A stretch of 64,000 bases of DNA from Alphaproteobacteria bacterium (GTDB lineage: Bacteria > Pseudomonadota > Alphaproteobacteria > CAAGCB01 > CAG-977), in contig JAKSVU010000002.1 of the NCBI GenBank assembly GCA_024413465.1, forward strand, positions 75,063 to 139,062. The letters run 5' to 3'. A model generated the notes under the pieces. The model made no database searches and had not been told where the DNA came from. It saw only the letters and a list, made by a program, of their open reading frames with translations. The position numbers were made by a program, and so were the translations under genes. Positions 2,425 to 63,818 of the stretch are shown here, one piece after another (the stretch's first letter is position 1; each line of letters opens with the position of its first letter).

Positions 2425-2492
2425 AAATATAGCATTTATATGTGTGATAAATATGATTTTTAGTGAATAAAAGAGGACGAGGAAAATATAAA

Positions 2493-3746
2493 ATGAGCGA
2501 TAAATTAGAATGGCGAAACAGACATTTTGCATTGCTGAGATGTAAAGATTTGAAAGATGCAGTTGATTCTGAAAAATATGTGTGTCGTCCTGATTTGAAA
2601 GATTTTTACAAGAAAAATTTAGTCGAAGACGTAATTTGGGATTTTGCGGATGCCGGACGATATAAATGTGCTACAGAATTAATGGGATACGTTGGTCATC
2701 ATCGGGCAGTAGTTTGGTGGGCATATCAATGTGCGTTATCTTTGATGGAAGAATTGGAAAAAAATCCAGCACCAACTGTCGATATTGATAATATTGGAAA
2801 ATCATTCGAGCCAGAAGTTCCTGATTTTGCCAAGGTTGAAATTCCTAAGATTACGCCGGAACAACAAGGTGAAATTGATAAAAATATGGCGAATTTAAAC
2901 CAAAAAGTTCAGGAATTGCGTGCAAAATGTGATCCAGAATTGTTGGGGATGGCTGATGAATTGATGGATACTTTTTATCAAGAATTTAAAAAAGTTCACG
3001 GGTATACACCACTTGAATTGATAGATTTAGCTGGAAAAAAATATAGGGAAGAAATTGAGCAAGGAAACGTTGATAGAAACAGTCCTATTTTTAAAGAGTG
3101 TGAAAAGATAAAAGCTCAACTTCAGAACGTTCGTAAGGAAACTTTAGATACGATTCATACAGTTCTCCCTCCTGAATTGCCAGAAGTGAAGAAAGAACAA
3201 TCTTTAAAAGCAATAAAATCTGTTTATAACTGGATTTTGGCTCCAGATGAAATTAACGCAAAAATCTGCTTAGATTGTGGAAATGCTTGTCCAGATGCTC
3301 CGGCTGGAATTTTGGCATATTGTGCATTTTGGGCTTGGGGAGATATGCTTCCTGGTGAAAAAACAGATGTCGTTGTTAAAACACCTGCAGGTTTAATGTC
3401 AAACGGGATATCTCAATTTTTGTTGATGTGTGCTTTGCATAAAGGAGGAACGCGTAAATTAAAAGAACGTTATGCCGAATATTTTAGATTAGGTGTTGAT
3501 GTTTTGACAGGCAGAAATCTTTGGGATGAAGCAGTGATTTCTGGGGAAGTTCCTCATGAAAAATTCCTTCAAGAAAATGAAAATTCAAATGGCGTAGAGG
3601 TTAAGAAAACTTCTCCTGTTCAAGCTGAAGTGAAAGAAAATGATAAAAAAGTGGATGAAAATTCTGATATAGATGATTTTGAACGGAAGGTTACTCAAGC
3701 TGGCTATAGAAAAGAGAAAAAATATACTCGTTGGAAACCAGAATAA
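2493..3746 (+). CDS. hypothetical protein (Cys-containing, no recognised family)
   Basis: The ORF is open from GTG 2463; ATG 2493 is preferred because of the RBS AAGAGGACGAGGA. It is the third gene of the same operon and is followed by the terminator at 3771-3807. Confidence 0.5.
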   Translation: MSDKLEWRNRHFALLRCKDLKDAVDSEKYVCRPDLKDFYKKNLVEDVIWDFADAGRYKCATELMGYVGHHRAVVWWAYQCALSLMEELEKNPAPTVDIDNIGKSFEPEVPDFAKVEIPKITPEQQGEIDKNMANLNQKVQELRAKCDPELLGMADELMDTFYQEFKKVHGYTPLELIDLAGKKYREEIEQGNVDRNSPIFKECEKIKAQLQNVRKETLDTIHTVLPPELPEVKKEQSLKAIKSVYNWILAPDEINAKICLDCGNACPDAPAGILAYCAFWAWGDMLPGEKTDVVVKTPAGLMSNGISQFLLMCALHKGGTRKLKERYAEYFRLGVDVLTGRNLWDEAVISGEVPHEKFLQENENSNGVEVKKTSPVQAEVKENDKKVDENSDIDDFERKVTQAGYRKEKKYTRWKPE

Positions 3747-4196: not shown

Positions 4197-5087
4197 ATGG
4201 TAGATTTAGTTAGAGAATTAAAAGAAACTGCAAAAGCAACCAGAAATACGATAGATCGTTTGTTAAAAGTTCCAAATGGAATGGAAAAGCGCGTTGTTGA
4301 AGCAATGAGATATTCTGTTTTGGCTGGTGGGAAGGCTTTGCGTCCGTTTATGGTTCTTGAAAGTGCAAAATTGTTTGACGTTGAACAAGAACGCGCTTTG
4401 CGTGTAGCTGCAGCTTTGGAAATGGTTCATTGCTATTCTTTGATTCATGATGATTTACCAGCAATGGATAATGATGATATGCGTCGTGGTCAACCTACTT
4501 GTCATAAACAATTTGATGAAGCTACTGCTATTTTAGCGGGAGATGGTTTGTTGACACGTGCTTTTGGTGTCATTTCAAGTGATGAATGTTTATTTGAACC
4601 TCAAATTAGATGTAAATTAATTCACCGTTTGGCAAAAGCTGCCGGAATGACCGGTATGATTGGTGGCCAAATGATGGATATTTTGGCAGAAACAGAAGAA
4701 GAAATGAAATTGCCAGATGTTATTAGATTACAAGAATTAAAGACAGGTTGTTTGTTCTCTTTTGCTTGTGAATCTGGTGCTGTCATGGGCAAAGGATCTT
4801 TGGAACAACAACAAAAATTGCGTGATTATGCTCGTCACTTTGGATTAGCTTTCCAAATTGCTGACGATATTTTGGATGTTGAAGGCGATGCAAACGTTGT
4901 TGGAAAGGCAGTTCGTAAAGATTTGGATGCTCATAAGGCAACATTTATCTCCTTGTTAGGTTTAGAAAAAGCAAAAGAACAAGCAAGATTGTTATCTCAG
5001 CAAGCTGTAGATAGCCTAGCTGGTTTTGATGGTCGTGCAGACAATTTGCGTGAATTAGCACGTTATATTGTGGATCGTAAATCATGA
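4197..5087 (+). CDS. ispA: farnesyl/geranyl diphosphate synthase
   Basis: Both aspartate-rich motifs are present (LIHDDLPAMDNDDMRRG and FQIADDILD). Confidence 0.9.
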   Translation: MVDLVRELKETAKATRNTIDRLLKVPNGMEKRVVEAMRYSVLAGGKALRPFMVLESAKLFDVEQERALRVAAALEMVHCYSLIHDDLPAMDNDDMRRGQPTCHKQFDEATAILAGDGLLTRAFGVISSDECLFEPQIRCKLIHRLAKAAGMTGMIGGQMMDILAETEEEMKLPDVIRLQELKTGCLFSFACESGAVMGKGSLEQQQKLRDYARHFGLAFQIADDILDVEGDANVVGKAVRKDLDAHKATFISLLGLEKAKEQARLLSQQAVDSLAGFDGRADNLRELARYIVDRKS

Positions 5088-6988
5088 TTGATAACGAATC
5101 TGAGTATTCAGATTTATTAAGTCAGATAAATTCTCCCGTCGATTTGCGTCAGTTGCCAATTTGTGATCTTCCTAAATTGGCTCAGGATATTCGTCATAAA
5201 ATTATTGACGTAGTGTCAAAAACGGGGGGACATTTGGGGTCAAGTCTTGGTGTCGTTGAATTAACAATCGCCTTGCATTACGTCTTTAACACGCCGGATG
5301 ATAAATTGATTTTTGACGTGGGACATCAATGTTATACCCATAAATTGTTGACGGGAAGACGCGATCGTTTTGATAAGTTACGCCAAGAAGGTGGCTTGTC
5401 TGGTTTTACGAAACGGTCAGAAAGTGATTTTGATCCATTTGGAGCAGGACATAGTTCTACGTCTGTTTCTGCAGCTGTTGGTATGGCTGCTGGACGTGAT
5501 TTGACAGGACGTAAAAATAATGTGATTTGCGTTATTGGTGATGGATCAATGAGTGCTGGTATGGCATTCGAAGCATTGAATAATGCTGGTGATACAAATC
5601 GCAGAATGATTGTTATCTTGAATGACAATGATATGTCTATTGCTCAACCAGTGGGAGCTTTAAGTCATCATTTATCACAAATTTTGTCTTCTAAAAAATA
5701 TATGTCATTGCGTCAGACTGCTTTGGAAATGTCTGAACGCTTGCCTCAATTTGTGAAAAAAATGGCATTGAAGGTTGAACATCATGCTAAAGGGTTAGTA
5801 ACGGGAGGAACTTTGTTCGAGGAGTTAGGGTTATATTACGTTGGCCCAATCGATGGACATAGTTTTGATCAACTGATTCCAATTTTGACGAACGTGCGTG
5901 ATGCTCCAGAAGAATGTCCTATTTTAATACACGTTGTTACACAAAAGGGAAAAGGTTATGCTCCAGCTGAACAAAAGCCATCAAAATATCATGGAGTTTC
6001 TAAGTTTGATGTAACAACAGGTGAATTTGTCCCAAAAACAAATAAGAATCCAACTTTTACACAAACTTTTTCGGATACGTTGGTTTCGATGGCTGCTCAA
6101 GATTCAACAATTGCTGCAATTACTGCGGCAATGCCAAGTGGAACGGGACTAGATGCTTTTTCACAGATGTATAATTCTCGTTTTTTTGACGTTGGAATTG
6201 CAGAACAACATGCTGTTACTTTTGCTGCGGGGTTAGCTTGTGAAGGGGTAAAACCATTTGTTGCCTTGTATTCTAGTTTTTTACAAAGAGCATACGATCA
6301 AGTTTTGCATGACGTTGCTTTACAAAATTTACCAGTTCGTTTTTGTATAGATAGAGCAGGATTTGTCGGTGATGATGGTGCAACGCATCATGGGGTGTTT
6401 GATTTGGCAATGCTTTGTCCGATTCCAAATATGATTGTTATGGCTCCATCTGATCAGCAAGAATTGCAAAAAATGTTGCTGACAATGCAAGAAATTAATG
6501 ATCATCCTTCAGCTGTTCGTTATCCAAGAGGAAGTGGGGAATGTGTTGAATTGGCAAATAACGTGGAACCTTTGGAAGTTGGTAAAGGTCGAGTTTTGCG
6601 CGAAGGAAAAAAGGTTGCAGTCGTTTCTTTGGGAACAAGATTGAAAGCTTGTTTAGATGCTGCAGATTTAGTTAAAAACCATAAAAATTTTGAGCCAACA
6701 GTTGTTGATGCTCGATTTGCTAAACCTTTTGATAAAGATTTGATTCGTCAATTAGTGAAAAAGCATGATGGATTGGTTTTTGTTGAGGAAGGTGTTACTG
6801 GTGGTTTCGGAACGATGGTGATGAACTGGATGACAAATGAAGGTTTGTCAGATGGTGTTAAATTACGTTGTTTAACGGTTCCTGACGTTTTTGTAGAACA
6901 GGCAACAGCTGAACGACAATATGAATTAGCAGGCTTAGATGCTAAGCATATTAGTCAAGTTATAGAATCTATCGCAGGCAAAAAATAA
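5084..6988 (+). CDS. dxs: 1-deoxy-D-xylulose-5-phosphate synthase
   Basis: 634 aa with a TPP-binding GDG...N motif and transketolase-like domains. It overlaps the ispA stop by 4 nt. Confidence 0.95.
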   Translation: MIDNESEYSDLLSQINSPVDLRQLPICDLPKLAQDIRHKIIDVVSKTGGHLGSSLGVVELTIALHYVFNTPDDKLIFDVGHQCYTHKLLTGRRDRFDKLRQEGGLSGFTKRSESDFDPFGAGHSSTSVSAAVGMAAGRDLTGRKNNVICVIGDGSMSAGMAFEALNNAGDTNRRMIVILNDNDMSIAQPVGALSHHLSQILSSKKYMSLRQTALEMSERLPQFVKKMALKVEHHAKGLVTGGTLFEELGLYYVGPIDGHSFDQLIPILTNVRDAPEECPILIHVVTQKGKGYAPAEQKPSKYHGVSKFDVTTGEFVPKTNKNPTFTQTFSDTLVSMAAQDSTIAAITAAMPSGTGLDAFSQMYNSRFFDVGIAEQHAVTFAAGLACEGVKPFVALYSSFLQRAYDQVLHDVALQNLPVRFCIDRAGFVGDDGATHHGVFDLAMLCPIPNMIVMAPSDQQELQKMLLTMQEINDHPSAVRYPRGSGECVELANNVEPLEVGKGRVLREGKKVAVVSLGTRLKACLDAADLVKNHKNFEPTVVDARFAKPFDKDLIRQLVKKHDGLVFVEEGVTGGFGTMVMNWMTNEGLSDGVKLRCLTVPDVFVEQATAERQYELAGLDAKHISQVIESIAGKK

Positions 6989-7076
6989 ATAATTTAATGA
7001 AATGCTAGGTGACTGTTTTTTTATGAATTATTAATTTGAAAAATAATTATAAAAAAATGCTTGCATAATTTTGTTT

Positions 7077-7125
7077 TGTCAATATATAGTGGAAGTGAAG
7101 AGAGAAAACTCTCTATATTTAGTTT
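7077..7125 (+). promoter_or_regulatory. two NrdR-box-like 16-bp palindromes (tgtCAATATATAGTGg and tctCTATATTTAGTtt), centres 33 bp apart
   Basis: Each matches ~12-13/16 positions of the NrdR box consensus acaCwAtATaTwGtgt as I recall it. They lie 25-70 bp upstream of the NrdD-like mini-gene, after a TTGCAT -35-like hexamer at 7062-7067. Confidence 0.35.
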
Positions 7126-7149
7126 TTATTATTTATATAGAAGAAAAAA

Positions 7150-7344
7150 ATGAACGATAATACAGAAATTTTATTAAAAGATGAAGAACGCCAGCCTTGT
7201 GAAGTTTGGACAAGGGTAATGGGATATTTTCGTCCAATGTCAGAATATAATTATGGTAAAAAAAGTGAATTTGCTGAACGCCGTTATTTTAAACAAGATT
7301 TGGCAATGGAAAAAATTTGTAGTTGCCATCAAGCTGCAGAATAA
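7150..7344 (+). CDS. stand-alone NrdD C-terminal glycyl-radical-domain-like mini-protein (64 aa)
   Basis: TRVMGYFRPMSEYNYGKKSEFAERRYF matches the class III RNR glycyl radical motif RVCGYLGSP..FNAGKQ.EV..R. It is flanked by Cys residues (C17, C58, C60). A terminator follows directly. Confidence 0.55.
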   Translation: MNDNTEILLKDEERQPCEVWTRVMGYFRPMSEYNYGKKSEFAERRYFKQDLAMEKICSCHQAAE

Positions 7345-7365
7345 AGAATTAAAATTGTAAAAATG

Positions 7366-7395
7366 AAAAACAGGAGATTTTCTCCTGTTTTTTTG
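7366..7395 (+). terminator. Rho-independent terminator (A-tract upstream, possibly bidirectional)
   Basis: aacaggaga ttt tctcctgtt followed by tttttg. Confidence 0.6.
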
Positions 7396-7496
7396 TTAAG
7401 GGCAAAATATGCCTAGTTTGATGTGATATTAACTTTTTTTTAAATGAATCAAGATAAGCTGACTGTATATCTATGGATGACAGAAGGAATCAGGTT

Positions 7497-10400
7497 ATGC
7501 GAATAAAAAAGAATTGGAAATTTGCTGGATTGTTAATGCTTTCAACGGCATTGATGCCTGTTCCTGGATATACAAGTGCTACATTGGAAATTTCAAGCCA
7601 ACCCTTAGGGAATCAATACGTTGATGAGCGAACGGCCACGAATGATGTCGAAATTACATCCACTGGAGATATTAAGTTTAATTCAAGTTTTAAGGAACTT
7701 TGGTCATATTACAGTTATGTCACGAATGAGACAGGAGAAGTTTCTTTTGAAAGAATAGGTGACACAGTGACATATACACCTGAACAAGTTCAAAGTGCAC
7801 CGCAAGATTATAAAGGTGATATTGTTTTTAGTAGTAGCGGAAAATTTTCAGATTCGGATGATGCTGGGATACGAATTTACAAAGGGTTAGATGTTTTAGA
7901 GATTGGGCAAAGTGAAATTCAGACGCCGGGGAATATAATTATTCAAGCAGGAACTTTTAATTTTACTCAAAAACAAGGTGAGATTCTGTTAAGAAGATCT
8001 GCTAGTGGTAATTTTACGATTAATGGGGGAAAATTTGTTGTTGGAGAACATGGTAAAGCTCTCATCGGTCAAAAGTTTTATTCTGATGGTGGTTTTGGGA
8101 AAACAAGTACTAAACTTTTTATTAACTCAGGAACTTTAGATATTGCAGCTGGAGGAATTTTACAATTTAGTGGATATAACGTTCAATATGGAGGCGGTTC
8201 TACTAATAAAGTTATGATAACAGATTCTTCTGCGGGAATTTTATCCTTTATTGGGGGAAATAGTGAGTCAGCTAAAACCATAGATATTAAAGATTCAATT
8301 GATTTAAGCCAAGGGGAATTGAATTTATATTCTGGAAATATGATTTTAAATGCTGATGTAACCGTTAAAAAATTTAGTTTTGGAGATACAACGGATGTTG
8401 ACGCTACAATTTTAGGAATTAAAACTCCAGAAGGACAAATTTTGAACGTTGATAAAAGTCATCATCTGACAGTTTCTGAAGATTTTGTTATGAAATCAAA
8501 TTCTCATCTAATTGGTGATGGTGTTCTTTCACTAGAACATGGAGCGAGTGCGACTTTTGGTATTTTGGATTTTGGAACGATTTCAGTAAGTGGTCAAAAT
8601 GGAAGTGATGTCTATGGAACAATCACTTTTATGGGGGCAGCCAATTTGATTAATTTGGAAGCTGAGGGGTCAAAAATTCAAAATAATTCTAATTTAACAG
8701 TTGAAAATTTGACTTTAAAAGCAAATGGGGCTGATAAATCTGAACTTACTTTGGCAAAGGCTGATGAAGGTGGAACTGCATATTTGTATATAGACCATTT
8801 TGATATTGAAGGTGGAACGGTTGTATTTAATCAAGATAGTCAATTGTACATTAGGAAAGATGCGATAATTAATGAATTGACAACGATAAATGGAAAAGGA
8901 ACAATTAATTTTACCAGTGATCCTAGCAAGGAAACAGGTGTTTTAGAATTTAAAGATTCCGTTGAAAATTCAACAAAAACTATTTCAATTGCGGAAACAA
9001 TTAATTTAGTTGTTGGTAATGGAGGAACCGTAGATTTTAATTTATCAAATGGTTTGACTGGTTTTAATCTTGTAAGTGTAGAAGATGGACTGCTAAAGGT
9101 CTCTCAATCAGAAAATATAATACATAAACTTGTTTTGGGACAGGCAGCTTCTTCGAAATCTTTTGTGCTACAAGTTGCAGAAGGAGCTACTTTAAATTTT
9201 GATAAATATGCGTATATTTATCCTGGTGCTCAGCTGAATATTGATGGAACGTTATCCATTAATGGAACGACAGATGAAGGGGAATATGTTGTTTCTGGTA
9301 AATCATCAACGATAGCTGCTGCAAAGGGAACTGAAACAAATGTGGTTGGTTCTGGAACTTTACAATTAATTGGTAAGATCACTTCAAATGCATCCTATAA
9401 CATTGAAAATCTTGTTATTGGTGATGGAACAACGACGACGGTTACGCATGATACAAGAGGAACTTCTTCTTCAGATTGGTCAAGTCAACATTTCGCTCAA
9501 AATTTAACAGTCAATGCAAATGCAATTTTAAACATTGACGGTGGTGAATTGGATACAGCAGGATTAAGTGGTGATGGGACAATAGTTATCAATACAAATG
9601 GAATTTTAGGGGTTGATTCTACTTCAGAATTAACAGGCGTTGGTTCAATTTCAGGTGATGGAACGTTAAAATTATTAAACGCTACAAATATGACATTGTT
9701 AGCAGATTCATCGTCTTCTTTAAAGGTTTCAATCGGAACTGGAACTTTAACAATTGGAACGGATGGTTCAACATCAAATACAAAGTTTGGTTCATTGTCA
9801 TTTAATGATTCTGCGAATGGTGGTTCTGTTGTTATCAATGATGGAAGTTCACTTTCATTGGGCTCAATTAATGTTTCTGGGAAATCAAGTTTAATTGGAA
9901 AAGGGAGTTTATATTTAGCAACAGCTCCAGCAGATTATGGAAAAATTTCCTATATTTCTGGTGGGGGAAATTTAGATTTCAATAAAATTGAAATTACTTA
10001 TGGTGGTTTAATTGTTTCTAGATCAGGAAAAATTGAAGATTTAACTACAATCGGTTTACAAGTTTCTGGATCAGGAACGTTATTGAATGTTAATAAAATA
10101 ACGGCTGATGGAAATTCTGGGGGGATTGGTCTTACAGATGGGGCGTCACTTCAAGTTGAAAAATTTATGACTTCAAGTACTGTTGTTGGAACTGGAACGT
10201 TAGTGGCGGGAGAAGGACAATTTGATTCACATGCAGTTTCTGATTTTATGGGGTATGCTTATCCTGTGTTAGATACGCTAGATAAATCTTTGTCAGGAAT
10301 ATTGACTGTTCAGGGTGAGATAAATAATGTTCGTGTAACTCAAGGAACATTAGAAATAGAGGGAACTAATCATTTTTATGCGAGTGAGTTGACAAAGTTA

Positions 10401-13400
10401 GGTTTGACTGTTCAAAATATTGATGTTTTAAGTGGAGAATTAAAGAATTCATCTAATGGCGGAGAAGGGTTAATAGTTTCTAATTCTGGACATTTTGGGA
10501 ATGGAACAATTGGTGGATTAAGTAAATTAACTGCAGCTAATAATGATGTTAGATTCACATTTGATGGTACAAATACCCTTGTAAGTTATGATATGAATAA
10601 TACGAATTCTGTTGTTCAGATTAATCAAGGGGGAACCTTAAATTTAAAAGATTGGTCAAATGAAACGACTGATCATAAGTTTATAGGGGCAGGAACTTTA
10701 TCTGTGCAAAAGGATTCAGGAGAATTAAAGTCCACAATTGAAAATTTAGGTGTGTTAGAAATTAATGCTTCTTCCTTTACGTTATCGTCACAATTGAATA
10801 ATTTGGGTGAATTAGATTTAGAACAAGGTGGTACAACAATTGCTTCAAATGGAACTGTTGGAACTTTAGTAATTGATCAATCTTCAACAATTGTTAATGG
10901 AACACTTACAATTACGAATAAACTAGACGTTCAAGAAGATACTTCAGGTACAGGTACGTTCATTATTCAATCTGGTTCTGCTGATTTTGGTGCTAACTTT
11001 GCAGGTAATTTAGAAATTGGTTCTGTTGCAAATATCAAAGAGAATATTTCACTTGGAAATGTTACATTCTCTTCAAGTAACGGTGGAACATTGAATATTG
11101 AAGAAGGAAAAACGTTAACTTTGAGTTCTTTGACAACAAGTGGAAGAAACGTTGTTAATGGTGCAGGTGTTTTAGCTGTTAGTGGTTCAGGATCAAGTTT
11201 TGGTGCTCCAATCAATGGATTAGGAAAGTTAGATTTAAAAACGTCTAGTTCAGATGCTACTTTTAATCGAAGTGCAAATATTTCAGAAATTTCATTTGCC
11301 GGAGGTAGTTCAGTTACAGTAAATTCTGGATATACGTTGACTGTATCGACGTTGTCAGGAACAGGAACTCCGAGTGTCCAGGGAGCTGGAACGTTTTCTT
11401 TTGATGGTAATACAAGTGAGTCAGATTTGAACGTTGGTAGTGGATTAGGAACGTTAAACGTTATTTCTGGTAAAATAAAAATAGTTGAAGACGGAACAAT
11501 CGGAAACGTGTCTTTGTCTATGGGTAATTTAGCTGTTGCAGATGGTAAGACTTTGACGGTAAATAACATAGATGGAGCAGGTGAATTATCTGCTGAGGGA
11601 AGTTATTCTGCTAAGTTAGTTCTTAACAATTCTGCAAATTTTGTAAAGAACGTTTCTAACTTTAATACGATTATGTCAACGGGAAGAACTGTTTTTCAGA
11701 ATGGAATTGATGTTACAAACTTGAATATAGCTTCAGGAATGACTTCAATTAATGGAACTTCAAATACAATTGGAACGCTAACAATTGATGGAACTTTGGA
11801 TATTGGTGGGTATCAAAAAGTAAATGCTACAAATGTTACCTTTAATCCAGGTTCTTCCTTAAATTTGAATATTAATCCAGAATCGCTAGCTTTAGGGCAA
11901 ATTCAATCTTCAAATGTAACAATTAATCCTAATGTAGCTTTAAATTTGAATATCGGATATGGTGTGAAAAAGGATGGGATGGAATTCCGAGTTGTTGATG
12001 GCGGTGTTCCTAATGGTGAATTTTCAGTGGTTTCAAATAATCGCTATAATTTGACAAATACAAATTGTTCAGGTGGCTTGTGTTATAAAATTGTTCAGAC
12101 TGCAACAGGGGAAGAAGTTGTAAATCAGTCTGGAGGAAGTAACAATGATGCTGCAGTTGCAAGGGCTGTTTTAGATAGTGAAATTTTCAAACCAACAGAT
12201 AGATTCTACCCAGTTGCGGTACGATTGTATGATTTGTCTTTATATGGAAGTGCCAAGGAATATCGTGATGCTTTGACAACAGTTGCACCTGATGTGACAG
12301 GATCTGCGATGAAGCAATCTATTGACGTCCAATCACAAATCACAAATATTGCTTTTTCAAGATTACAACGGTTGGGGAGTAATTTAGGATCAAGAGCAAC
12401 AAATTATGGTTATAAAAAAGCCTATGGACATGCAGGTGGTAATTACTATAAATATCGTGGTAATTCTAGAAGTTCGTACAGAAGTAGTGATTTAGGTGAT
12501 ATCAAAAAATATAAGCGAAACAATGAATATGAATATTATCGTGTAAAACCGACTACCGTCCAAAAGTATGATGCTAGAAAGTATAATCGTTATCAAGATG
12601 TAACACCTACAACAGGAAAAGTAGAAACTTCGGTTGCTCCAAATTATCAAAAGTATTATGGAGCTTCATCTTCGGATCCAAAACGTTATGAAAGATTTAA
12701 AAATTCCTATGGTGTGTATGAAAATAATGAACGTTTAGATTCTACAGATCCGAAGAAATATTCTCGTTCTCGTGATACCATTTTATATCAACAAGAAAAA
12801 ACACAAACTGTTTTGACTCCGGAAAAGAAGTATCAGCGTAAGATTTTACAGCCATCATCAAATGGAACGGTTGTTGCAGATTCTATGAAATATAAACATA
12901 CAGGATATCAACCTTTCCAAAATAGACTTGATTTTGGCGTATGGGCAGAAGGTTTCTTCAATACAAACGAATATAAAAATGAAAATGATCCAGATGGGTT
13001 CTCTTCGGATACAACCGGATTTGCAACAGGTATGGATATCTCATTTCTTGATATGTTTGCATTCGGCGTTGGGTATTCAAATTCACAAACAGATTTGAAG
13101 ACGTTGAATCGTAAGACTGACGTTAATGGAAATACGTTCTTTATGTATGGTATGGTTAAGCCTAATAATTTCTACGTCAGTGGATTCTTGGGCTTTACAT
13201 CAAATGAATATAAAGAACATAAGAAGATTAAAGGCATTAAAGAAATCGAAGATAATTATGATGGTAGTTCAGTCGGAGCTCAGATTAATATTGGTTATGA
13301 TTTAGGACAATGGCATCCAGAAGTTGGTGTTCGCTATACCAATGCAAAATTTGATGCAAGAACTGATTCTGTTGGTCAAAAGGTTGATTCATACAGTGGT

Positions 13401-13718
13401 ACCGTTGGTACGGCATTGGCAAATGTAACATATGAGACGGATTTACGTAGAACTGATTCCGATGTTGTTTCTGCTGATTTTAGCGTAGGAGTTTCTTATG
13501 ATTTCAAAACAGCAAAACAAAAAAATACTGTTGCTTTAGAAAATGGATCAAGTTATACCGTTGAAGGAGCTTCTTTGGATAAGTTTGGTATTGAAGCCGG
13601 AGCTGGTATTTCATATAAGGCAAATGATCACGTTGAATTTCGTGCTGAATATGATTGCGATTATAAAAAAGATTTCATATCACATTCTTTGAAAGCACAT
13701 GTTCGTTATAACTTTTAA
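7497..13718 (+). CDS. giant classical (type Va) autotransporter with beta-helical passenger and C-terminal beta-barrel
   Basis: The ORF opens at 7473. ATG 7497 is preferred (RBS AGGAA; signal peptide MRIKKNWKFAGLLMLSTALMPVPGYTSA). There are ~1600 aa of Gly/Thr/Ser/Asn-rich pseudo-repeats (GTL, NGT, LxV), then a Y/K-rich linker. The last ~300 aa have alternating hydrophobic beta-strand patterning and end in the aromatic residue ...RYNF. Confidence 0.85.
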   Translation: MRIKKNWKFAGLLMLSTALMPVPGYTSATLEISSQPLGNQYVDERTATNDVEITSTGDIKFNSSFKELWSYYSYVTNETGEVSFERIGDTVTYTPEQVQSAPQDYKGDIVFSSSGKFSDSDDAGIRIYKGLDVLEIGQSEIQTPGNIIIQAGTFNFTQKQGEILLRRSASGNFTINGGKFVVGEHGKALIGQKFYSDGGFGKTSTKLFINSGTLDIAAGGILQFSGYNVQYGGGSTNKVMITDSSAGILSFIGGNSESAKTIDIKDSIDLSQGELNLYSGNMILNADVTVKKFSFGDTTDVDATILGIKTPEGQILNVDKSHHLTVSEDFVMKSNSHLIGDGVLSLEHGASATFGILDFGTISVSGQNGSDVYGTITFMGAANLINLEAEGSKIQNNSNLTVENLTLKANGADKSELTLAKADEGGTAYLYIDHFDIEGGTVVFNQDSQLYIRKDAIINELTTINGKGTINFTSDPSKETGVLEFKDSVENSTKTISIAETINLVVGNGGTVDFNLSNGLTGFNLVSVEDGLLKVSQSENIIHKLVLGQAASSKSFVLQVAEGATLNFDKYAYIYPGAQLNIDGTLSINGTTDEGEYVVSGKSSTIAAAKGTETNVVGSGTLQLIGKITSNASYNIENLVIGDGTTTTVTHDTRGTSSSDWSSQHFAQNLTVNANAILNIDGGELDTAGLSGDGTIVINTNGILGVDSTSELTGVGSISGDGTLKLLNATNMTLLADSSSSLKVSIGTGTLTIGTDGSTSNTKFGSLSFNDSANGGSVVINDGSSLSLGSINVSGKSSLIGKGSLYLATAPADYGKISYISGGGNLDFNKIEITYGGLIVSRSGKIEDLTTIGLQVSGSGTLLNVNKITADGNSGGIGLTDGASLQVEKFMTSSTVVGTGTLVAGEGQFDSHAVSDFMGYAYPVLDTLDKSLSGILTVQGEINNVRVTQGTLEIEGTNHFYASELTKLGLTVQNIDVLSGELKNSSNGGEGLIVSNSGHFGNGTIGGLSKLTAANNDVRFTFDGTNTLVSYDMNNTNSVVQINQGGTLNLKDWSNETTDHKFIGAGTLSVQKDSGELKSTIENLGVLEINASSFTLSSQLNNLGELDLEQGGTTIASNGTVGTLVIDQSSTIVNGTLTITNKLDVQEDTSGTGTFIIQSGSADFGANFAGNLEIGSVANIKENISLGNVTFSSSNGGTLNIEEGKTLTLSSLTTSGRNVVNGAGVLAVSGSGSSFGAPINGLGKLDLKTSSSDATFNRSANISEISFAGGSSVTVNSGYTLTVSTLSGTGTPSVQGAGTFSFDGNTSESDLNVGSGLGTLNVISGKIKIVEDGTIGNVSLSMGNLAVADGKTLTVNNIDGAGELSAEGSYSAKLVLNNSANFVKNVSNFNTIMSTGRTVFQNGIDVTNLNIASGMTSINGTSNTIGTLTIDGTLDIGGYQKVNATNVTFNPGSSLNLNINPESLALGQIQSSNVTINPNVALNLNIGYGVKKDGMEFRVVDGGVPNGEFSVVSNNRYNLTNTNCSGGLCYKIVQTATGEEVVNQSGGSNNDAAVARAVLDSEIFKPTDRFYPVAVRLYDLSLYGSAKEYRDALTTVAPDVTGSAMKQSIDVQSQITNIAFSRLQRLGSNLGSRATNYGYKKAYGHAGGNYYKYRGNSRSSYRSSDLGDIKKYKRNNEYEYYRVKPTTVQKYDARKYNRYQDVTPTTGKVETSVAPNYQKYYGASSSDPKRYERFKNSYGVYENNERLDSTDPKKYSRSRDTILYQQEKTQTVLTPEKKYQRKILQPSSNGTVVADSMKYKHTGYQPFQNRLDFGVWAEGFFNTNEYKNENDPDGFSSDTTGFATGMDISFLDMFAFGVGYSNSQTDLKTLNRKTDVNGNTFFMYGMVKPNNFYVSGFLGFTSNEYKEHKKIKGIKEIEDNYDGSSVGAQINIGYDLGQWHPEVGVRYTNAKFDARTDSVGQKVDSYSGTVGTALANVTYETDLRRTDSDVVSADFSVGVSYDFKTAKQKNTVALENGSSYTVEGASLDKFGIEAGAGISYKANDHVEFRAEYDCDYKKDFISHSLKAHVRYNF

Positions 13719-13973
13719 TGATTAAAAATTTCCCTTGATTAATAAGGCTGTAAAAAGCCCCGAAGATTTTAATAGCATTTTTCAGGGAAATTTTTTGTCG
13801 CTTTTTCTTAAAATATGACAAGTTTTGGTATTTTTTTCTGATATATATTTGTTTGAAACAGAAAAAGTTTCATTTTTGTTCTTTTTATACTTGAAAAATG
13901 AGAACAAATTTGGTACATATAGTTCAATGTTGATTTTAAATTGAATTTATGAAATAACAGAAGGACAAAAAAG

Positions 13974-15041
13974 ATGAGTGATGAACAACAGGATTTACAT
14001 TTGGTGGATAAGAAAACAATGGAAAAAGAAAAAGCATTACAAGCAGCATTAAGTCAAATCGAACGTTCCTTTGGTAAAGGAGCCGTTATGCGTTTGGGAC
14101 AACAGAGTGATGCAGAAGGAATTCAAACAATTTCTTCTGGATCTTTAGGGTTAGATATTGCATTAGGAATTGGTGGACTTCCTCGTGGACGTATTATTGA
14201 AGTTTATGGTCCAGAAAGTTCTGGTAAAACGACGTTAGCTCAACACGTTGTTGCTGAAGCTCAGAAAAACGGGGGGCAGTGTGCTTACGTTGATGCTGAA
14301 CATGCTTTAGATCCTACTTATGCCAAAAAATTGGGTGTTGATATTGATAACCTTTTGATTTCACAACCTGATACAGGGGAACAAGCTTTGGAAATTGCAG
14401 ATACACTTGTTCGTTCTGGAGCAATAGACGTTTTAGTTGTCGATTCTGTTGCAGCTTTGGTTCCAAAGGCAGAATTAGAAGGGGAGATGGGAGATTCACA
14501 CGTCGGATTGCAAGCTCGTTTGATGTCCCAAGCTTTGCGTAAGTTGGCAGGTTCCGTAGCCCGTTCTAATACGTTGGTTATTTTTATTAACCAATTGCGT
14601 ATGAAAATCGGCGTTATGTTTGGTAATCCTGAAACAACAACAGGTGGTAATGCTCTGAAATTTTATGCTTCTGTTCGTATTGAAATTCGTCGTGGTCCTC
14701 AAATTAAAGATAAAGAGGAAGTTGTTGGAAATAGTGCAACAGTAAAAGTTGTCAAAAATAAAGTTGCCCCTCCATTCAGATCAGTTGAATTTGATATTAT
14801 GTATGGGGAAGGTATTTCTAAAACAGGTGAATTAATTGATTTAGGTGTAAAAGCTGGATTGATTGAAAAGGCAGGTGCTTGGTTGTCATACGGAAAAGAA
14901 CGTTGGCAAGGAAAAGAAAATGCTCGTGCTTTCTTGAAAGAAAATCAAACTGTTGCCGATGAATTGGAACAAAAAATTCGAGAAAAAGCAGGATTGTTAT
15001 CTAATAAGATGATAAATGAAGAACCTGAAGAGGAAAATTGA
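13974..15041 (+). CDS. recA: recombinase A
   Basis: Walker [10 protein letters not shown] plus the rest of the RecA core. The RBS is aaggacaaaaaag. Confidence 0.95.
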
Positions 15042-15064
15042 TTTCACAAATTAGCTATTTCAAA

Positions 15065-15103
15065 ATAAGGCAATTCAAGTAATAAGTTGCCTTATTTTTT
15101 TTG
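15065..15103 (+). terminator. Rho-independent terminator after recA
   Basis: ataaggcaa...ttgccttat followed by ttttttt. Confidence 0.6.
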
Positions 15104-15120
15104 AATTATTTAAAAAAATA

Positions 15121-15150
15121 AAAAAAAACCTAGCTTTCGCTAGGTTTTTA
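15121..15150. terminator. bidirectional hairpin terminator (A8-stem-T5) downstream of the minus-strand tRNA genes
   Basis: aaaaaaaa cctagc tttc gctagg ttttt. Confidence 0.5.
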
Positions 15151-15152
15151 AT

Positions 15153-15227
15153 TGGCTCCGCGAGTAGGATTCGAACCTACGACCAGCCGGTTAACAGCCG
15201 GCTGCTCTACCGCTGAGCTATCGCGGA
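15153..15227 (-). tRNA. tRNA-Asn (anticodon GTT)
   Basis: The reverse complement folds as a cloverleaf: acceptor TCCGCGA/TCGCGGA, anticodon loop CTGTTAA, T-arm GGTTCGAATCC, 3' CCA encoded. Confidence 0.85.
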
Positions 15228-15236
15228 ATGATAGCT

Positions 15237-15310
15237 TGGAGGCCGAAACCGGAATCGAACCGATATACAAGGATTTGCAGTCCTCTGCATAACCATTCTG
15301 CCATTCGGCC
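15237..15310 (-). tRNA. tRNA-Cys (anticodon GCA)
   Basis: Reverse complement GGCCGAATGGCAGAATGG...CTGCAAA...GGTTCGATTCC...CCA. Confidence 0.85.
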
Positions 15311-15441
15311 CTTTTCGGTATAGTCTCAATCGACAAGATGGATTTATATACCTATAAAAGTAACTCGTCAATAGAAAAAATAAAATTTTTTACTTTTTTT
15401 TTCAAATGGAAAAATAATCGCAAGAACAAGTATTTCTACGC

Positions 15442-15471
15442 TTGACAAACTTGTTTTTATTTTTTTAAAAT
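15442..15471 (+). promoter_or_regulatory. sigma70-like promoter for hupB (TTGACA-N18-TAAAAT)
   Basis: Perfect -35 hexamer, 18-nt spacer, 5/6 -10 match, ~35 nt upstream of the hupB ATG. Confidence 0.4.
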
Positions 15472-15505
15472 GCCTTTGTATTATTCATTTATGAGGAGTT
15501 TAATT

Positions 15506-15778
15506 ATGAATAAAGCAGAATTAGTTGCAGCAATTGCAAAGAATGCAGGTTTAACAAAAGTTGATGCTGAAAAAGCATTAGAAGCTACAATGGACGCAAT
15601 TGAAGCAACATTGAAAGCTGGTGACGAAGTTCGTTTGGTTGGCTTCGGTACATTTGCTGTTGCTACACGTAAAGCAACAGTAGGTCGTAACCCTCGTACA
15701 GGTAAGGAAATTAAAATCCCAGCTTCTAAAGCTCCAAAATTCAAAGCTGGTAAATTATTGAAAGATGCTTTGAATTAA
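15506..15778 (+). CDS. hupB: DNA-binding protein HU
   Basis: MNKAELVAAIA...GFGTF...RNPRTG is the HU/IHF signature. The RBS GAGGAG supports ATG 15506 rather than the longer ORF from 15470. Confidence 0.9.
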   Translation: MNKAELVAAIAKNAGLTKVDAEKALEATMDAIEATLKAGDEVRLVGFGTFAVATRKATVGRNPRTGKEIKIPASKAPKFKAGKLLKDALN

Positions 15779-15800
15779 TCTTTATTTTTTAAAGATTTCT

Positions 15801-15840
15801 AGAGATCTCTAATTATTCGTAATTAGAGATCTTTTTTTTG
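15801..15840 (+). terminator. Rho-independent terminator after hupB
   Basis: 13-15 bp stem agagatctctaatta/taattagagatct with a T8 run. Confidence 0.65.
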
Positions 15841-15903
15841 TTTTATTTAAGAAAAAGAGCGTGATAATATGACACCAAGTCGTTTTATAGAAAGTTAAAT
15901 AGG

Positions 15904-16590
15904 ATGTTTTCTCCAATCAACCTGAAAGAATTTTATCGAGTTTCTCGGAAAAATATGGTTTATAGACAAATTGTTCCCGAGGGTGTTACAGATTGGAATG
16001 TGTTAAATGCCTTAAAATCAGTTCCACGAGAGATTTTTGTTCCAGAACGTATTCAACCAAGAGCCTATATGGATCAACATATATATGTTGATTCTTATAA
16101 ATTCTTTTTAAAACCAGTTATTTTTGGAAAATTGTTGGAAAAAGCACATTTTACAAAAAATGATTTCGTCTTGAATTTAAATTGCCAGGGAGGATATACA
16201 ACTTTTGTTTTGGCAAAAATGACAAAAATGGTTGTTGGAATTGAAAAAAATATCAATTCATTTTATTTTGCAGAGGATTTTCAGGAAGAACATCAAATTG
16301 ATAATGTTGCTTTTTTTAATACTGAGGATTTAACTTTTTTGAAAAAACAATCTTTGTTTGATGCAATCTTTATCGATTCTATTATTCCAAGAATTCCAGA
16401 ACATATTGAAGATTATTTAACAGATAGTGGGCGGTTAATTTGTGTAACTCTTCCGTTAGATAGTAATATTGGAACTGCTGGGATTTACATAAAAAAACAA
16501 GGGAATTTAGAACTTAATTTTTCAATTGAAACAGATTTAAAATCATTTCCTCGAATTTTAAAAATTGATACAGAAGAATCTGATAACTAA
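15904..16590 (+). CDS. protein-L-isoaspartate O-methyltransferase family protein
   Basis: VLNALKSVPREIFVP motif and methyltransferase fold. Its position upstream of tolC matches Brucella-type synteny. Confidence 0.6.
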   Translation: MFSPINLKEFYRVSRKNMVYRQIVPEGVTDWNVLNALKSVPREIFVPERIQPRAYMDQHIYVDSYKFFLKPVIFGKLLEKAHFTKNDFVLNLNCQGGYTTFVLAKMTKMVVGIEKNINSFYFAEDFQEEHQIDNVAFFNTEDLTFLKKQSLFDAIFIDSIIPRIPEHIEDYLTDSGRLICVTLPLDSNIGTAGIYIKKQGNLELNFSIETDLKSFPRILKIDTEESDN

Positions 16591-25490: not shown

Positions 25491-26546
25491 TTAGATTTTT
25501 TGTATACCAGATTTGAGTTGTCCACAGGCTGCCATTATTTCTTGTCCACGAGAAACACGAATTGGTGCAGCATAATGGTGAGCTTCAAGAATAGCTGCAA
25601 ATTTTTTGATTTTTGACATAGGAGAACATTTGAATGGACATCCAGGCCATTCATTAAATGGGATTAAATTGAATTTTACAGCTAATCCAGAAACTAATCG
25701 CATTAATTCATGAGCATCGGCTGGTGAATCATTAATCCCATCCAACATAACGTATTCCATTGTAATATAATTGCGTGTTCCAGCAATATCTTGAAACTTT
25801 TTACAGGCAACCATTAATTCTTTTAAAGGATATTTATGGTTGATTGGCATAATTTTATCACGAATTTCATTTGTCGGAGCATGCAAACTAACCGCAAGTT
25901 TTACGTCTAAGTCTGAGGCGATTTTATCTATAAGTGGAACTACACCAGATGTGGAAAGAGTAATTCTGCGTTTTGAAATAGCAATACCCTCTGGATCCAT
26001 AATGATCTTGAGAGCTTTCTTTGTATTTTCATAATTTAACAAAGGTTCACCCATTCCCATGACAACAATATTTGACAAATAGCGAGGTTCAATTGAAGGA
26101 CTAGGCCATTCATCATAACTATCTCTTGCAGCCATAAATTGTCCAACAATTTCTCCAGCTGTTAAATTACGTGTGAATTTTTGAGAGCCTGTGTGGCAAA
26201 ATTTGCAATCGTTTGGACAACCAACCTGAGTGGATATACAAACAGCACCACGATCTTCTTCAGGGATATAGACTGTTTCAACTTCTCGTTGATCAGTAAA
26301 TTGAAATAGCCATTTGCGAGTTTTATCCGTTGCTGTTAATTCACGAACAACTTTTGGACGATCTAATGTATATCCCTTTTCAATTAATTTTTGACGAAAA
26401 TCTTTCGCTAAACTCGTCATATCGTTAAAGTCAGTTTTTCCTTGCCAGTAAATCCAATGCCAAAGTTGTTTTGCACGAAATGCTTGTTCACCCATATTAA
26501 CCACTTCAGCGGTTAACTCTTCTTTACTTAAACCAATTAAATTCAT
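25491..26546 (-). CDS. rlmN: 23S rRNA/tRNA (adenine-C2)-methyltransferase RlmN (radical SAM)
   Basis: CPNDCKFCHTG radical-SAM motif and the overall RlmN length and pattern. Confidence 0.9.
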   Translation of the reverse strand: MNLIGLSKEELTAEVVNMGEQAFRAKQLWHWIYWQGKTDFNDMTSLAKDFRQKLIEKGYTLDRPKVVRELTATDKTRKWLFQFTDQREVETVYIPEEDRGAVCISTQVGCPNDCKFCHTGSQKFTRNLTAGEIVGQFMAARDSYDEWPSPSIEPRYLSNIVVMGMGEPLLNYENTKKALKIIMDPEGIAISKRRITLSTSGVVPLIDKIASDLDVKLAVSLHAPTNEIRDKIMPINHKYPLKELMVACKKFQDIAGTRNYITMEYVMLDGINDSPADAHELMRLVSGLAVKFNLIPFNEWPGCPFKCSPMSKIKKFAAILEAHHYAAPIRVSRGQEIMAACGQLKSGIQKI

Positions 26547-63302: not shown

Positions 63303-63818
63303 ATGAAAATTGTTATTTTGAATGGAAGTCCAAGAAAAGATGGAAATACAGCCTTTATGGTTAAAAATTTTGTAGATGCAATAGATCAAAGTAAACACGA
63401 AGTTTCTATTGTAGAATGTGCTCACAAAAAAGTGTCAGGATGTTTAGCTTGCGAATATTGCCACACAAAAGGAAATGGAAAATGTATTCAACAAGATGAA
63501 ATGCAGGAAATAATTCCCTTGTTAGAAAATGCTGAAATGTTAGTTTTAGCATCACCTGTTTATTATTTGACAATGTCTGCTCAACTTCAAGCAGTCCTTC
63601 AAAGAACGTATTGTATGATGAAACCACCTAAATTGAAAAAGATGGCATTATTATTGAGTTCACATTCACCTGAAGTTTATGATGCTATTTTAGCACAATA
63701 TCATGCAATCGCAGGATTTTGGGGAGTTGAAGATTGTTTTTCAATAACAGCTTTTGAGGGAGAAAATAAATCTGAAAACTTAAAACAAAAAATAAAGAAT
63801 GTGGCTAGTCAAATTTAA
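63303..63818 (+). CDS. flavodoxin-fold NAD(P)H-dependent FMN reductase / iron-sulfur flavoprotein-like
   Basis: MKIVILNGSPRKDGNT motif and a Cys cluster (CLACEYCHTKGNGKC). Confidence 0.7.
   Translation: MKIVILNGSPRKDGNTAFMVKNFVDAIDQSKHEVSIVECAHKKVSGCLACEYCHTKGNGKCIQQDEMQEIIPLLENAEMLVLASPVYYLTMSAQLQAVLQRTYCMMKPPKLKKMALLLSSHSPEVYDAILAQYHAIAGFWGVEDCFSITAFEGENKSENLKQKIKNVASQI

Follow-up and report, generated by a model that had tools for sequence, protein, structure and literature searches.

Class III ribonucleotide reductases (RNRs), such as the full-length NrdDs of phage T4, E. coli and T. maritima, hold a ten-stranded barrel, with or without an ATP-cone, and a glycyl-radical loop in one polypeptide. 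The loop follows a zinc ribbon and reads RV-x-GY...FN-x-GK..E...R. A small protein with the same motif, whose family likewise takes its place after a zinc ribbon, is encoded at positions 7150-7344 of a 64,000-nucleotide stretch of alphaproteobacterial DNA (contig JAKSVU010000002.1; this whole stretch is the window). Unlike in the full-length enzymes, the domain here forms a polypeptide by itself, with about 15 additional N-terminal residues and a dedicated ribosome-binding site, while the catalytic chain stops just past the zinc ribbon. We give a probability of roughly 0.7 to the reading that the product of this gene works as the small subunit of a split class III RNR and that the gene is an unlinked paralogue under NrdR-type control, its likeliest role being the supply of radical subunits.

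Glycyl radical enzymes share two problems: a buried loop must reach the activase, and a cut by oxygen wastes a very large protein. Oxygen cleaves the fused enzymes at the radical glycine (PMC8683613). The known spare parts of pyruvate formate-lyase (PFL), GrcA (YfiD) of E. coli and Y06I of phage T4, are like the window protein small lone glycyl-radical-loop proteins whose genes are unlinked to the catalytic gene. Orphans of the window type, by which we mean small genes without an adjoining reductase operon, also resemble GrcA in co-existing with a second source of the loop, and a plausible use would be to replace a radical domain that oxygen has cleaved (PMC8683613). The resemblance is functional only: the window protein is unrelated to the PFL-type Gly_radical domain and is preceded by an NrdR-type operator motif. 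A Pfam scan of it with E-values up to 10 returns NRDD and one chance match, and neither PF01228 nor IPR011140. Unlike the GrcA case, there would be no cleaved stub to displace, because the parent enzyme is already split. An earlier note on this DNA had drawn the GrcA/YfiD comparison, which is a reasonable functional lead. The 2021 GrcA study treats spare parts for other glycyl radical enzymes as merely a possibility (PMC8683613), and a 2026 paper from the field states that spare-part proteins are known for PFL alone.

The closest described split reductase is of class II. In NrdJa/NrdJb of Pseudomonas aeruginosa the C-terminal module is likewise a second gene that adjoins the catalytic gene (PMC9669993), but NrdJb is hundreds of residues long and carries a Cys-rich zinc-finger reducing tail rather than a radical. 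Papers on RNR evolution describe this split class II enzyme and no split class III enzyme. A full-text literature search, together with those papers and reviews of glycyl radical enzymes, gave no description of a split NrdD; most subscription journals lie outside that search, so that a prior mention is possible. The split class III RNR is widespread, and it is apparently undescribed. We know of no unlinked extra copies of NrdJb.

A radical loop encoded apart from the barrel

The 64-residue product, MNDNTEILLKDEERQPCEVWTRVMGYFRPMSEYNYGKKSEFAERRYFKQDLAMEKICSCHQAAE, matches the Pfam profile NRDD (PF13597) at 31 bits, above the gathering cut-off of 26.2, and thereby joins the class III RNR glycyl-radical domain. 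Its residues 14-47 correspond to the last 32 of the 562 profile positions (531-562). NCBIfam NrdD models are covered in just their final 30-35 positions, as with positions 649-683 of the 684 in PRK08270. The radical-glycine motif is present as TRVMGYFRPMSEYNYGKKSEFAERR, and the radical glycine is G25, within TRVMGYFRP. All 19 columns that are invariant in an alignment of 30 homologues are kept in the window protein (R14, Q15, C17, E18, W20, T21, R22, V23, M24, G25, Y26, R28, P29, N34, G36, K37, E40, R44 and F47). The small-protein profile covers residues 617-645 of T. maritima NrdD, the glycyl-radical loop, and the window protein aligns there to MRIVGYLVPVSAFNKERREIEYPRR. Since a PDB sequence search with the peptide gives only a marginal match (E-value 0.23), the identification as an NrdD loop rests on the Pfam match, on gene context and on a fused homologue described below.

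The earlier note had read this open reading frame (ORF) exactly as we find it, and its homology to the NrdD loop and its want of a catalytic barrel are both borne out. The protein is far too short for a full-length NrdD and its NCBIfam equivalog scores fall far under the cut-offs; for the same reasons the NCBI name of the entry (MCQ2965484.1), 'anaerobic ribonucleoside-triphosphate reductase', does not suit it. The note's radical glycine stands as well. Its flanking cysteine does not, because the Cys of RVCGY in full-length NrdDs is Met here (RVMGY), and the conserved cysteine is C17, eight residues before G25.

Short homologues of the window protein are numerous. Among 5.8 billion proteins they form 1650 clusters, and the 120 listed clusters that were examined all have 55-86 residues and an NRDD match. 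Sampling of one genome for each species confirms at least 595 loci in Alpha-, Beta- and Gammaproteobacteria, Parachlamydiales and Omnitrophota. Species with a split class III enzyme would mostly be Proteobacteria, with some Chlamydiae and Omnitrophota. Gene context was judged on 80 species loci. A large nrdD gene (nrdD-large, ~680 codons) lies directly upstream of the small gene in 67 of them, and in 66 of those 67 nrdG follows directly downstream. The same order of nrdD-large, small gene and radical S-adenosylmethionine activase is found in Rhodospirillum centenum, in Martelella and in abundant gut Alphaproteobacteria, and at loci L004-L026, L109 and L112. Because the small gene normally sits between a truncated nrdD-large and nrdG, its product is the glycyl-radical subunit, made as a protein apart, of a split class III RNR. 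The free-standing module that had seemed unusual is a member of a very large family with a usual place in an operon.

The large proteins of these operons (675-800 residues) have ATP-cone and NRDD domains and stop just past the zinc ribbon, with ...CPKHGYIxGEHxFCPxCD... and a short tail; one example closes with ...TFSICPKHGYISGEHKFCPLCDEELIAVKRQQACAC before the stop codon. They match PRK08270 from position 3 to 656 of 684 at 1135-1150 bits. Their alignment to solved NrdDs reaches no further than the zinc ribbon, at residue 610 of the 651 in T. maritima and 705 of the 743 in P. copri. The gap between the two reductase genes is 11-63 nt, the small gene is preceded by a ribosome-binding site of its own, and TIGR02495 (NrdG2) is the model that the activase matches. 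At the level of the family, then, the small gene lies between a PRK08270-type NrdD that ends at its zinc ribbon and NrdG2, and the window copy is unlinked. A fused relative of the same subfamily is the 627-residue NrdD of Acidiphilium multivorum, which ends in ...CPVHGYLPGAHHHCPRCAAEEPATIPRACEVWTRVMGYHRPVSSFNIGKQSEFTERRFF... and whose last 47 residues are 60% identical to the window protein. The end of this fused protein places the split point in the linker that joins the zinc ribbon to CEVWTRVMGY.

The three-gene set is also found on the megaplasmid pHG1 of Cupriavidus necator H16, as a 676-aa gene, a 66-aa gene annotated 'nrdD' (H16_RS32675) and the activase gene. For C. metallidurans, the genome paper lists NrdDG as Rmet_5137 and Rmet_5139 and passes over the gene between them. 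At locus L112 the operon seemed to lack a small gene because the one at 3011-3199 begins with GTG and escaped the gene caller used for the assembly collection. In many annotations the split architecture is probably concealed by uncalled genes of this kind and by labels such as 'hypothetical protein' or 'anaerobic ribonucleoside-triphosphate reductase'. In a low-GC species (L068, 7778-10180) nrdD-large adjoins the small gene and no NrdG homologue occurs within 10 kb downstream, so the activase gene can be unlinked too.

Some features of the family stand apart from these comparisons. The window protein has a C57-x-C59 pair near its C-terminus that is frequent in the small-protein family and not universal. 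Many small proteins end in such a C-x-C (CSC, CDC, CAC, CHC or CGC; 7318-7326 in the window), and so do several truncated large subunits, with the final residues QACAC, QACSC and QSCSC in L013, L017 and L112. These tails on both subunits recall the redox-shuttle cysteine pairs of class I and class II RNRs. AAE ends are likewise common to many small proteins and the R. centenum large subunit (CAAAE). In one operon copy (L028, 8761-8958) the conserved cysteine has moved by two residues (RQPVECW instead of RQPCEVW), which suggests that the thiol matters more than where exactly it stands. A phage origin of the window gene was considered and set aside; the only two matches are weak, and both are full-length phage NrdDs. 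The R. centenum operon is preceded by a pair of cobalamin riboswitches (L004, 5279-5492 on the minus strand and 5605-5814 on the plus strand; 137.7 and 115.2 bits with a gathering score of 31.5), one of which faces the split nrdD operon and the other the divergent cobalamin biosynthesis genes. The anaerobic reductase of this species appears to be switched by B12, besides or in place of NrdR.

Unlinked copies in the window and its relatives

Orphans account for 13 of the 80 species loci, most of them in Alphaproteobacteria of the gut or rumen. The window gene is likewise an orphan, an unlinked monocistronic paralogue and not an operon copy. The closest species-level relative is the Horse_feces366 metagenome-assembled genome (MAG; JAKSVT01), whose dxs and ispA proteins are 73% identical to those of the window. 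Its operon, with a small gene of its own, is on contig 24 (L109). One orphan is syntenic and lies ~6 kb upstream of xseB-ispA-dxs on contig 1 (L027), and contig 2 carries another (L108). In the E27__bin304 MAG an orphan (L079) accompanies the operon at L028. The KH347 'Acetobacter sp.' MAG has an NrdD-large (MBS6474118) and an orphan (MBS6474209) of cluster P0003. Among the matches listed, P0003 comes closest to the window protein outside the latter's own cluster (75% identity). NrdD of the KH347 type is accompanied by its own 62-aa small gene in all ten operon loci examined (L017-L026). The relatives thus carry, as in the GrcA case, a stand-alone loop protein beside a second source of the loop, with one or two orphans in addition to the operon copy. 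A distance tree, which is weak with ~56 aligned positions, groups orphans with the operon copies of related lineages and suggests that repeated duplications may have given rise to them.

The second orphan of Horse_feces366 (L108, 8001-8183) adjoins argG and argH, and no NrdR pair is evident upstream of it. About 4 kb downstream (12378-16183) is a PFL-like glycyl radical enzyme with a separate activase, accompanied by a small subunit that resembles the gamma subunit of 4-hydroxyphenylacetate decarboxylase.

The exact window protein recurs on a Logan contig (L001, sample SRR18398379) whose DNA is 96-97% identical to the window and therefore comes from the same species. The same sample contains L112, with nrdD-large (689 aa), a 62-aa small gene (GTG start) and nrdG. 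The tetranucleotide correlation between L112 and the window (r = 0.97) compares with 0.971-0.983 for the window's own 9-kb pieces; because further relatives of low GC reach almost the same values, the test does not discriminate. Synteny with the KH347-type operon extends to the flanks of L112 and L113 (Fe-S assembly protein 70%, RNase J-like protein 78%, 98-aa ORF 60%), which agrees with the close kinship of the KH347 and window orphans. No NCBI-sourced NrdD-large was recovered for the window's MAG, and the link between the organism and an operon therefore rests on this co-occurrence, composition and synteny. On these grounds the window organism probably has nrdD-large and nrdG. The suggestion in the earlier note that it may lack NrdD is unlikely to be right, since orphan-bearing relatives all have nrdD-large, a small gene and nrdG elsewhere and a matching operon contig occurs in the same-species sample.

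These data bear on the idea that the window gene is a relocated sole copy, moved away from nrdD-large and nrdG and left as the only source of the radical subunit in a dispersed operon. The gene is indeed unlinked in the window and no operon sourced from NCBI was recovered from the same MAG, but every orphan-bearing relative that could be checked has a small gene inside its operon (L109, L028, L017-L026), and the small gene of L112 is intact. Another orphan, P0063 (MCQ2966505.1), is 1021 away from the window protein in accession number and probably belongs to the same MAG. A relocated sole copy is accordingly unlikely.

An extra copy could also act as a regulatory decoy, one that tunes or inhibits the reductase by vying with the operon subunit for NrdG or the large subunit. 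The orphan is a separately regulated paralogue, and V30M, K45R, C46Y and the C-terminal tail set it apart from operon copies. A decoy would be expected to lose residues needed for the radical, but all orphans retain the family-invariant residues, including the radical glycine and RVMGY, and the ERRYF variant is shared with the operon copies of R. centenum and Martelella. We consider this role quite unlikely.

The same core sequence speaks against the 'some other use' that the earlier note had allowed for: in a genome without NrdD, a different partner (a class II reductase or some further glycyl radical enzyme) or a non-radical role. There is no partner gene within the window, and the L108 orphan lies close to the PFL-like enzyme with its own activase. 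The sequence is nevertheless specific to the NrdD loop, since Pfam gives NRDD and not Gly_radical, its core is essentially equal to that of operon copies with an evident partner, and the NrdR-type operator links the gene to ribonucleotide reduction. Such a partner is very unlikely, and an additional subunit for the class III reductase remains our preferred reading.

Upstream palindromes and purifying selection

The features around the small gene are collected in Table 1. The usual operators of NrdR, like the motif seen here, consist of two partial palindromes of 16 bp with a 15-17 bp spacer over the promoter of an RNR operon; the predicted pair in the window differs in that it fronts a monocistronic 64-aa gene instead of a catalytic RNR operon.

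Table 1. Features at and beside the small gene in the window
Feature	Position	Strand	Description
Putative sigma-70-type promoter	7061-7090	+	-35 TTGCAT (7061-7066), 18-nt spacer, -10 TATAGT (7085-7090); read from sequence
NrdR-box-like palindrome 1	7077-7092		tgtCAATATATAGTGg; 12/16 to ACACWATATATWGTGT; overlaps putative -10
NrdR-box-like palindrome 2	7108-7125		register 7110-7125, tctCTATATTTAGTtt (17-bp spacer), or 7108-7123, ACTCTCTATATTTAGT (15-bp spacer); each 12/16
Small glycyl-radical subunit gene	7150-7344	+	ATG start; 64 aa; Pfam NRDD match
Intrinsic-terminator-like hairpin	7366-7392		AAAAACAGGAGA-TTT-TCTCCTGTTTTT; bidirectional form; terminator scan
dxs (left neighbour)	5084-6988		preceded by ispA and xseB
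Autotransporter gene (right neighbour)	7473-13718		2081 aa

The two 16-bp palindromes that had been noticed upstream of the gene are present at 33 bp from each other, or at 31 bp if the second box is shifted by 2 bp; the two registers arise because of a TATAT periodicity, and they score equally. Both of the resulting spacers are compatible with an NrdR operator made of two boxes like acaCwAtATaTwGtgt that are 14-17 bp apart. For NrdR binding, 14-17 bp is accepted as the short spacer class, and the NrdRs of four species bind best at 15-17 bp (PMC12051234). The core of box 1, CAATATATAG, fits CWATATWTWG on both strands. The box pair is the sole one in the 64-kb window that scores at least 24/32, and 2 of 30 first-order Markov simulations reach such a score anywhere.

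These window-wide statistics leave chance open, and the comparative data are stronger. A pair that scores at least 22/32 occurs in 60 of 91 regions upstream of the nrdD operons of the family and in 13 of 550 control windows, which bears out the likeness to NrdR boxes and places the same motif upstream of the RNR operons of the lineage. The operon pairs of L112 and L111 score 23, and those of related low-GC gut Alphaproteobacteria score 26-28. The expected conservation of the palindromes in relatives holds in part. Box 1 is unchanged in five strains of the same species and is found as gccCCATATATAGTGg at the nearest orphan (L002), in a genome of 52% GC, but box 2 is degenerate there.

The -10 element of the putative promoter is identical in the L002 orphan, where a -35-like TTGTCA precedes it at matching positions. 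A consensus promoter scan made no call in the window because the -35 element matches only three of six positions. We infer that transcription would start from this promoter and that NrdR could bind at the box pair. The orphans of L002, L107 and L108 likewise have their own hairpin and T-run on the 3' side.

Between the two boxes is an inverted repeat (AGAGAG-AAAA-CTCTCT, 7099-7114), with GGGATG-A-CATCCC as its L002 counterpart. A leader hairpin or RNA element at this site was considered and rejected; its folding is not significant (z = -1.27, and -0.03 for the counterpart). An Rfam scan gives no family at gathering score at this site or at the terminator-like hairpin.

The small gene is under purifying selection. 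Over a 42-codon core, dN/dS is 0.25-0.27 for the window against L027, L112 and L107, and the full range for the gene is 0.09-0.33. Between the window and L002 synonymous sites are saturated, while 8% of non-synonymous sites differ. The ORF is conserved in related genomes, as it should be if the earlier note was right: the order xseB-ispA-dxs-small gene-autotransporter is kept in five strains of the species, and an orthologous orphan lies near xseB-ispA-dxs in the genome of a different species. The five strains show one substitution in the 165-nt upstream region against ~14 in the 195-nt coding sequence, so the regulatory region is more conserved than synonymous sites.

This pattern is hard to reconcile with a non-functional remnant of a duplication that has a chance pair of AT-rich palindromes before it. 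The ORF is short, TATA-rich palindromes are frequent in a genome of 34% GC, and the simulations that equal the pair score are in line with chance; against this stand a dN/dS of at most 0.25 with synonymous sites saturated relative to L002, the retention of the gene and its position, and the conserved upstream region. A remnant is highly improbable.

A proposed supply of radical subunits

In this NrdD subfamily (PRK08270, paired with an activase of the NrdG2 type) the catalytic chain stops directly past the zinc ribbon, and the last ~40 residues, with the radical-glycine loop, come as a separate peptide of ~60 residues. By analogy with fused NrdD, the loop of this peptide could dock in the barrel of the large subunit. 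NrdG2 with S-adenosylmethionine would then abstract a hydrogen from G25, and the resulting glycyl radical would generate a thiyl radical, with which nucleotide reduction begins.

With a putative promoter and terminator to itself and a predicted tandem NrdR operator across the -10 element, the window gene would on this proposal be repressed and derepressed along with the RNR genes. Oxygen cuts at the radical glycine, and a split enzyme would lose merely the ~60-aa peptide. An extra copy might raise or replenish this consumable part so that the intact 680-aa subunit is re-armed in the manner of GrcA. By this analogy the orphan most likely supplies an additional oxygen-labile radical subunit under NrdR control.

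Several observations weigh against this interpretation. Neither nrdD-large nor nrdG was found within the window, and a search there with an E. coli NrdR sequence gave no nrdR match. Homologue and cluster searches return operon proteins for the Horse_feces366 MAG and no NCBI NrdD-large numbered MCQ2965xxx-2966xxx; the nearest NrdD-large candidate (P0282) is known from Logan assemblies alone, and same-sample co-occurrence, composition and synteny cannot separate closely related low-GC species. The degenerate box 2 of L002 is part of a wider pattern in which just 5 of 19 orphan upstream regions have a strong pair (at least 22/32; the window, L001, L033, L096 and L101). An AlphaFold2 model of the peptide by itself is uninformative (predicted local distance difference test score of 60). 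Gene dosage or a condition-specific isoform would fit the sequence data equally well.

The broadest form of the proposal is that the class III RNRs of hundreds of species come in two pieces and that gut Alphaproteobacteria hold one or two additional copies under separate regulation, the window gene among them, as true spare parts that re-arm the large subunit after exposure to oxygen. We regard it as tentative, with the balance leaning somewhat to the other side. If true, it would be the first spare-part system outside PFL, and the activase may act on a free peptide. The unlinked copies with NrdR-type control suggest a strategy of repair or dosage at oxic-anoxic interfaces.

A natural NrdD with a free 60-aa radical loop would make loop presentation and oxygen damage directly testable on the isolated peptide, and the docking of a pre-formed radical and the exchange of damaged for fresh peptide could be followed. 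C. necator H16, with its three-gene set on pHG1, is a genetically tractable host, and its nrdD/nrdG are reported to be needed for anaerobic nitrate-dependent growth when B12 is absent. RNR inventories can be misled where a truncated large subunit is taken as a complete NrdD and small genes are mislabelled or missed.

A few minor observations concern the binning of the family's genomes and the surroundings of the window gene. Proteobacterial nrdD operons or orphans occur in bins named Parabacteroides distasonis, Bacteroidaceae, [Ruminococcus] gnavus and Lactobacillales (L035, L043, L056, L068 and L085-L087), which are probably mis-binned or mislabelled MAGs. Two weak tblastn matches in the window that were considered as activase candidates are RlmN (25491-26546) and an FMN reductase (63303-63818). 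Upstream of xseB are two large ORFs (2463-3746 and 265-2034), one of which (427 aa) matches DUF6931 only and the other of which (589 aa) has no Pfam match. The autotransporter of the window is 88.8% identical in protein sequence to that of the L001 strain, with a central part (~9918-10513) that is unalignable at the DNA level; because its flanks are 96-97% identical in DNA, this surface protein is one that varies between strains. An autotransporter gene adjoins the L002 orphan as well, on the opposite side.

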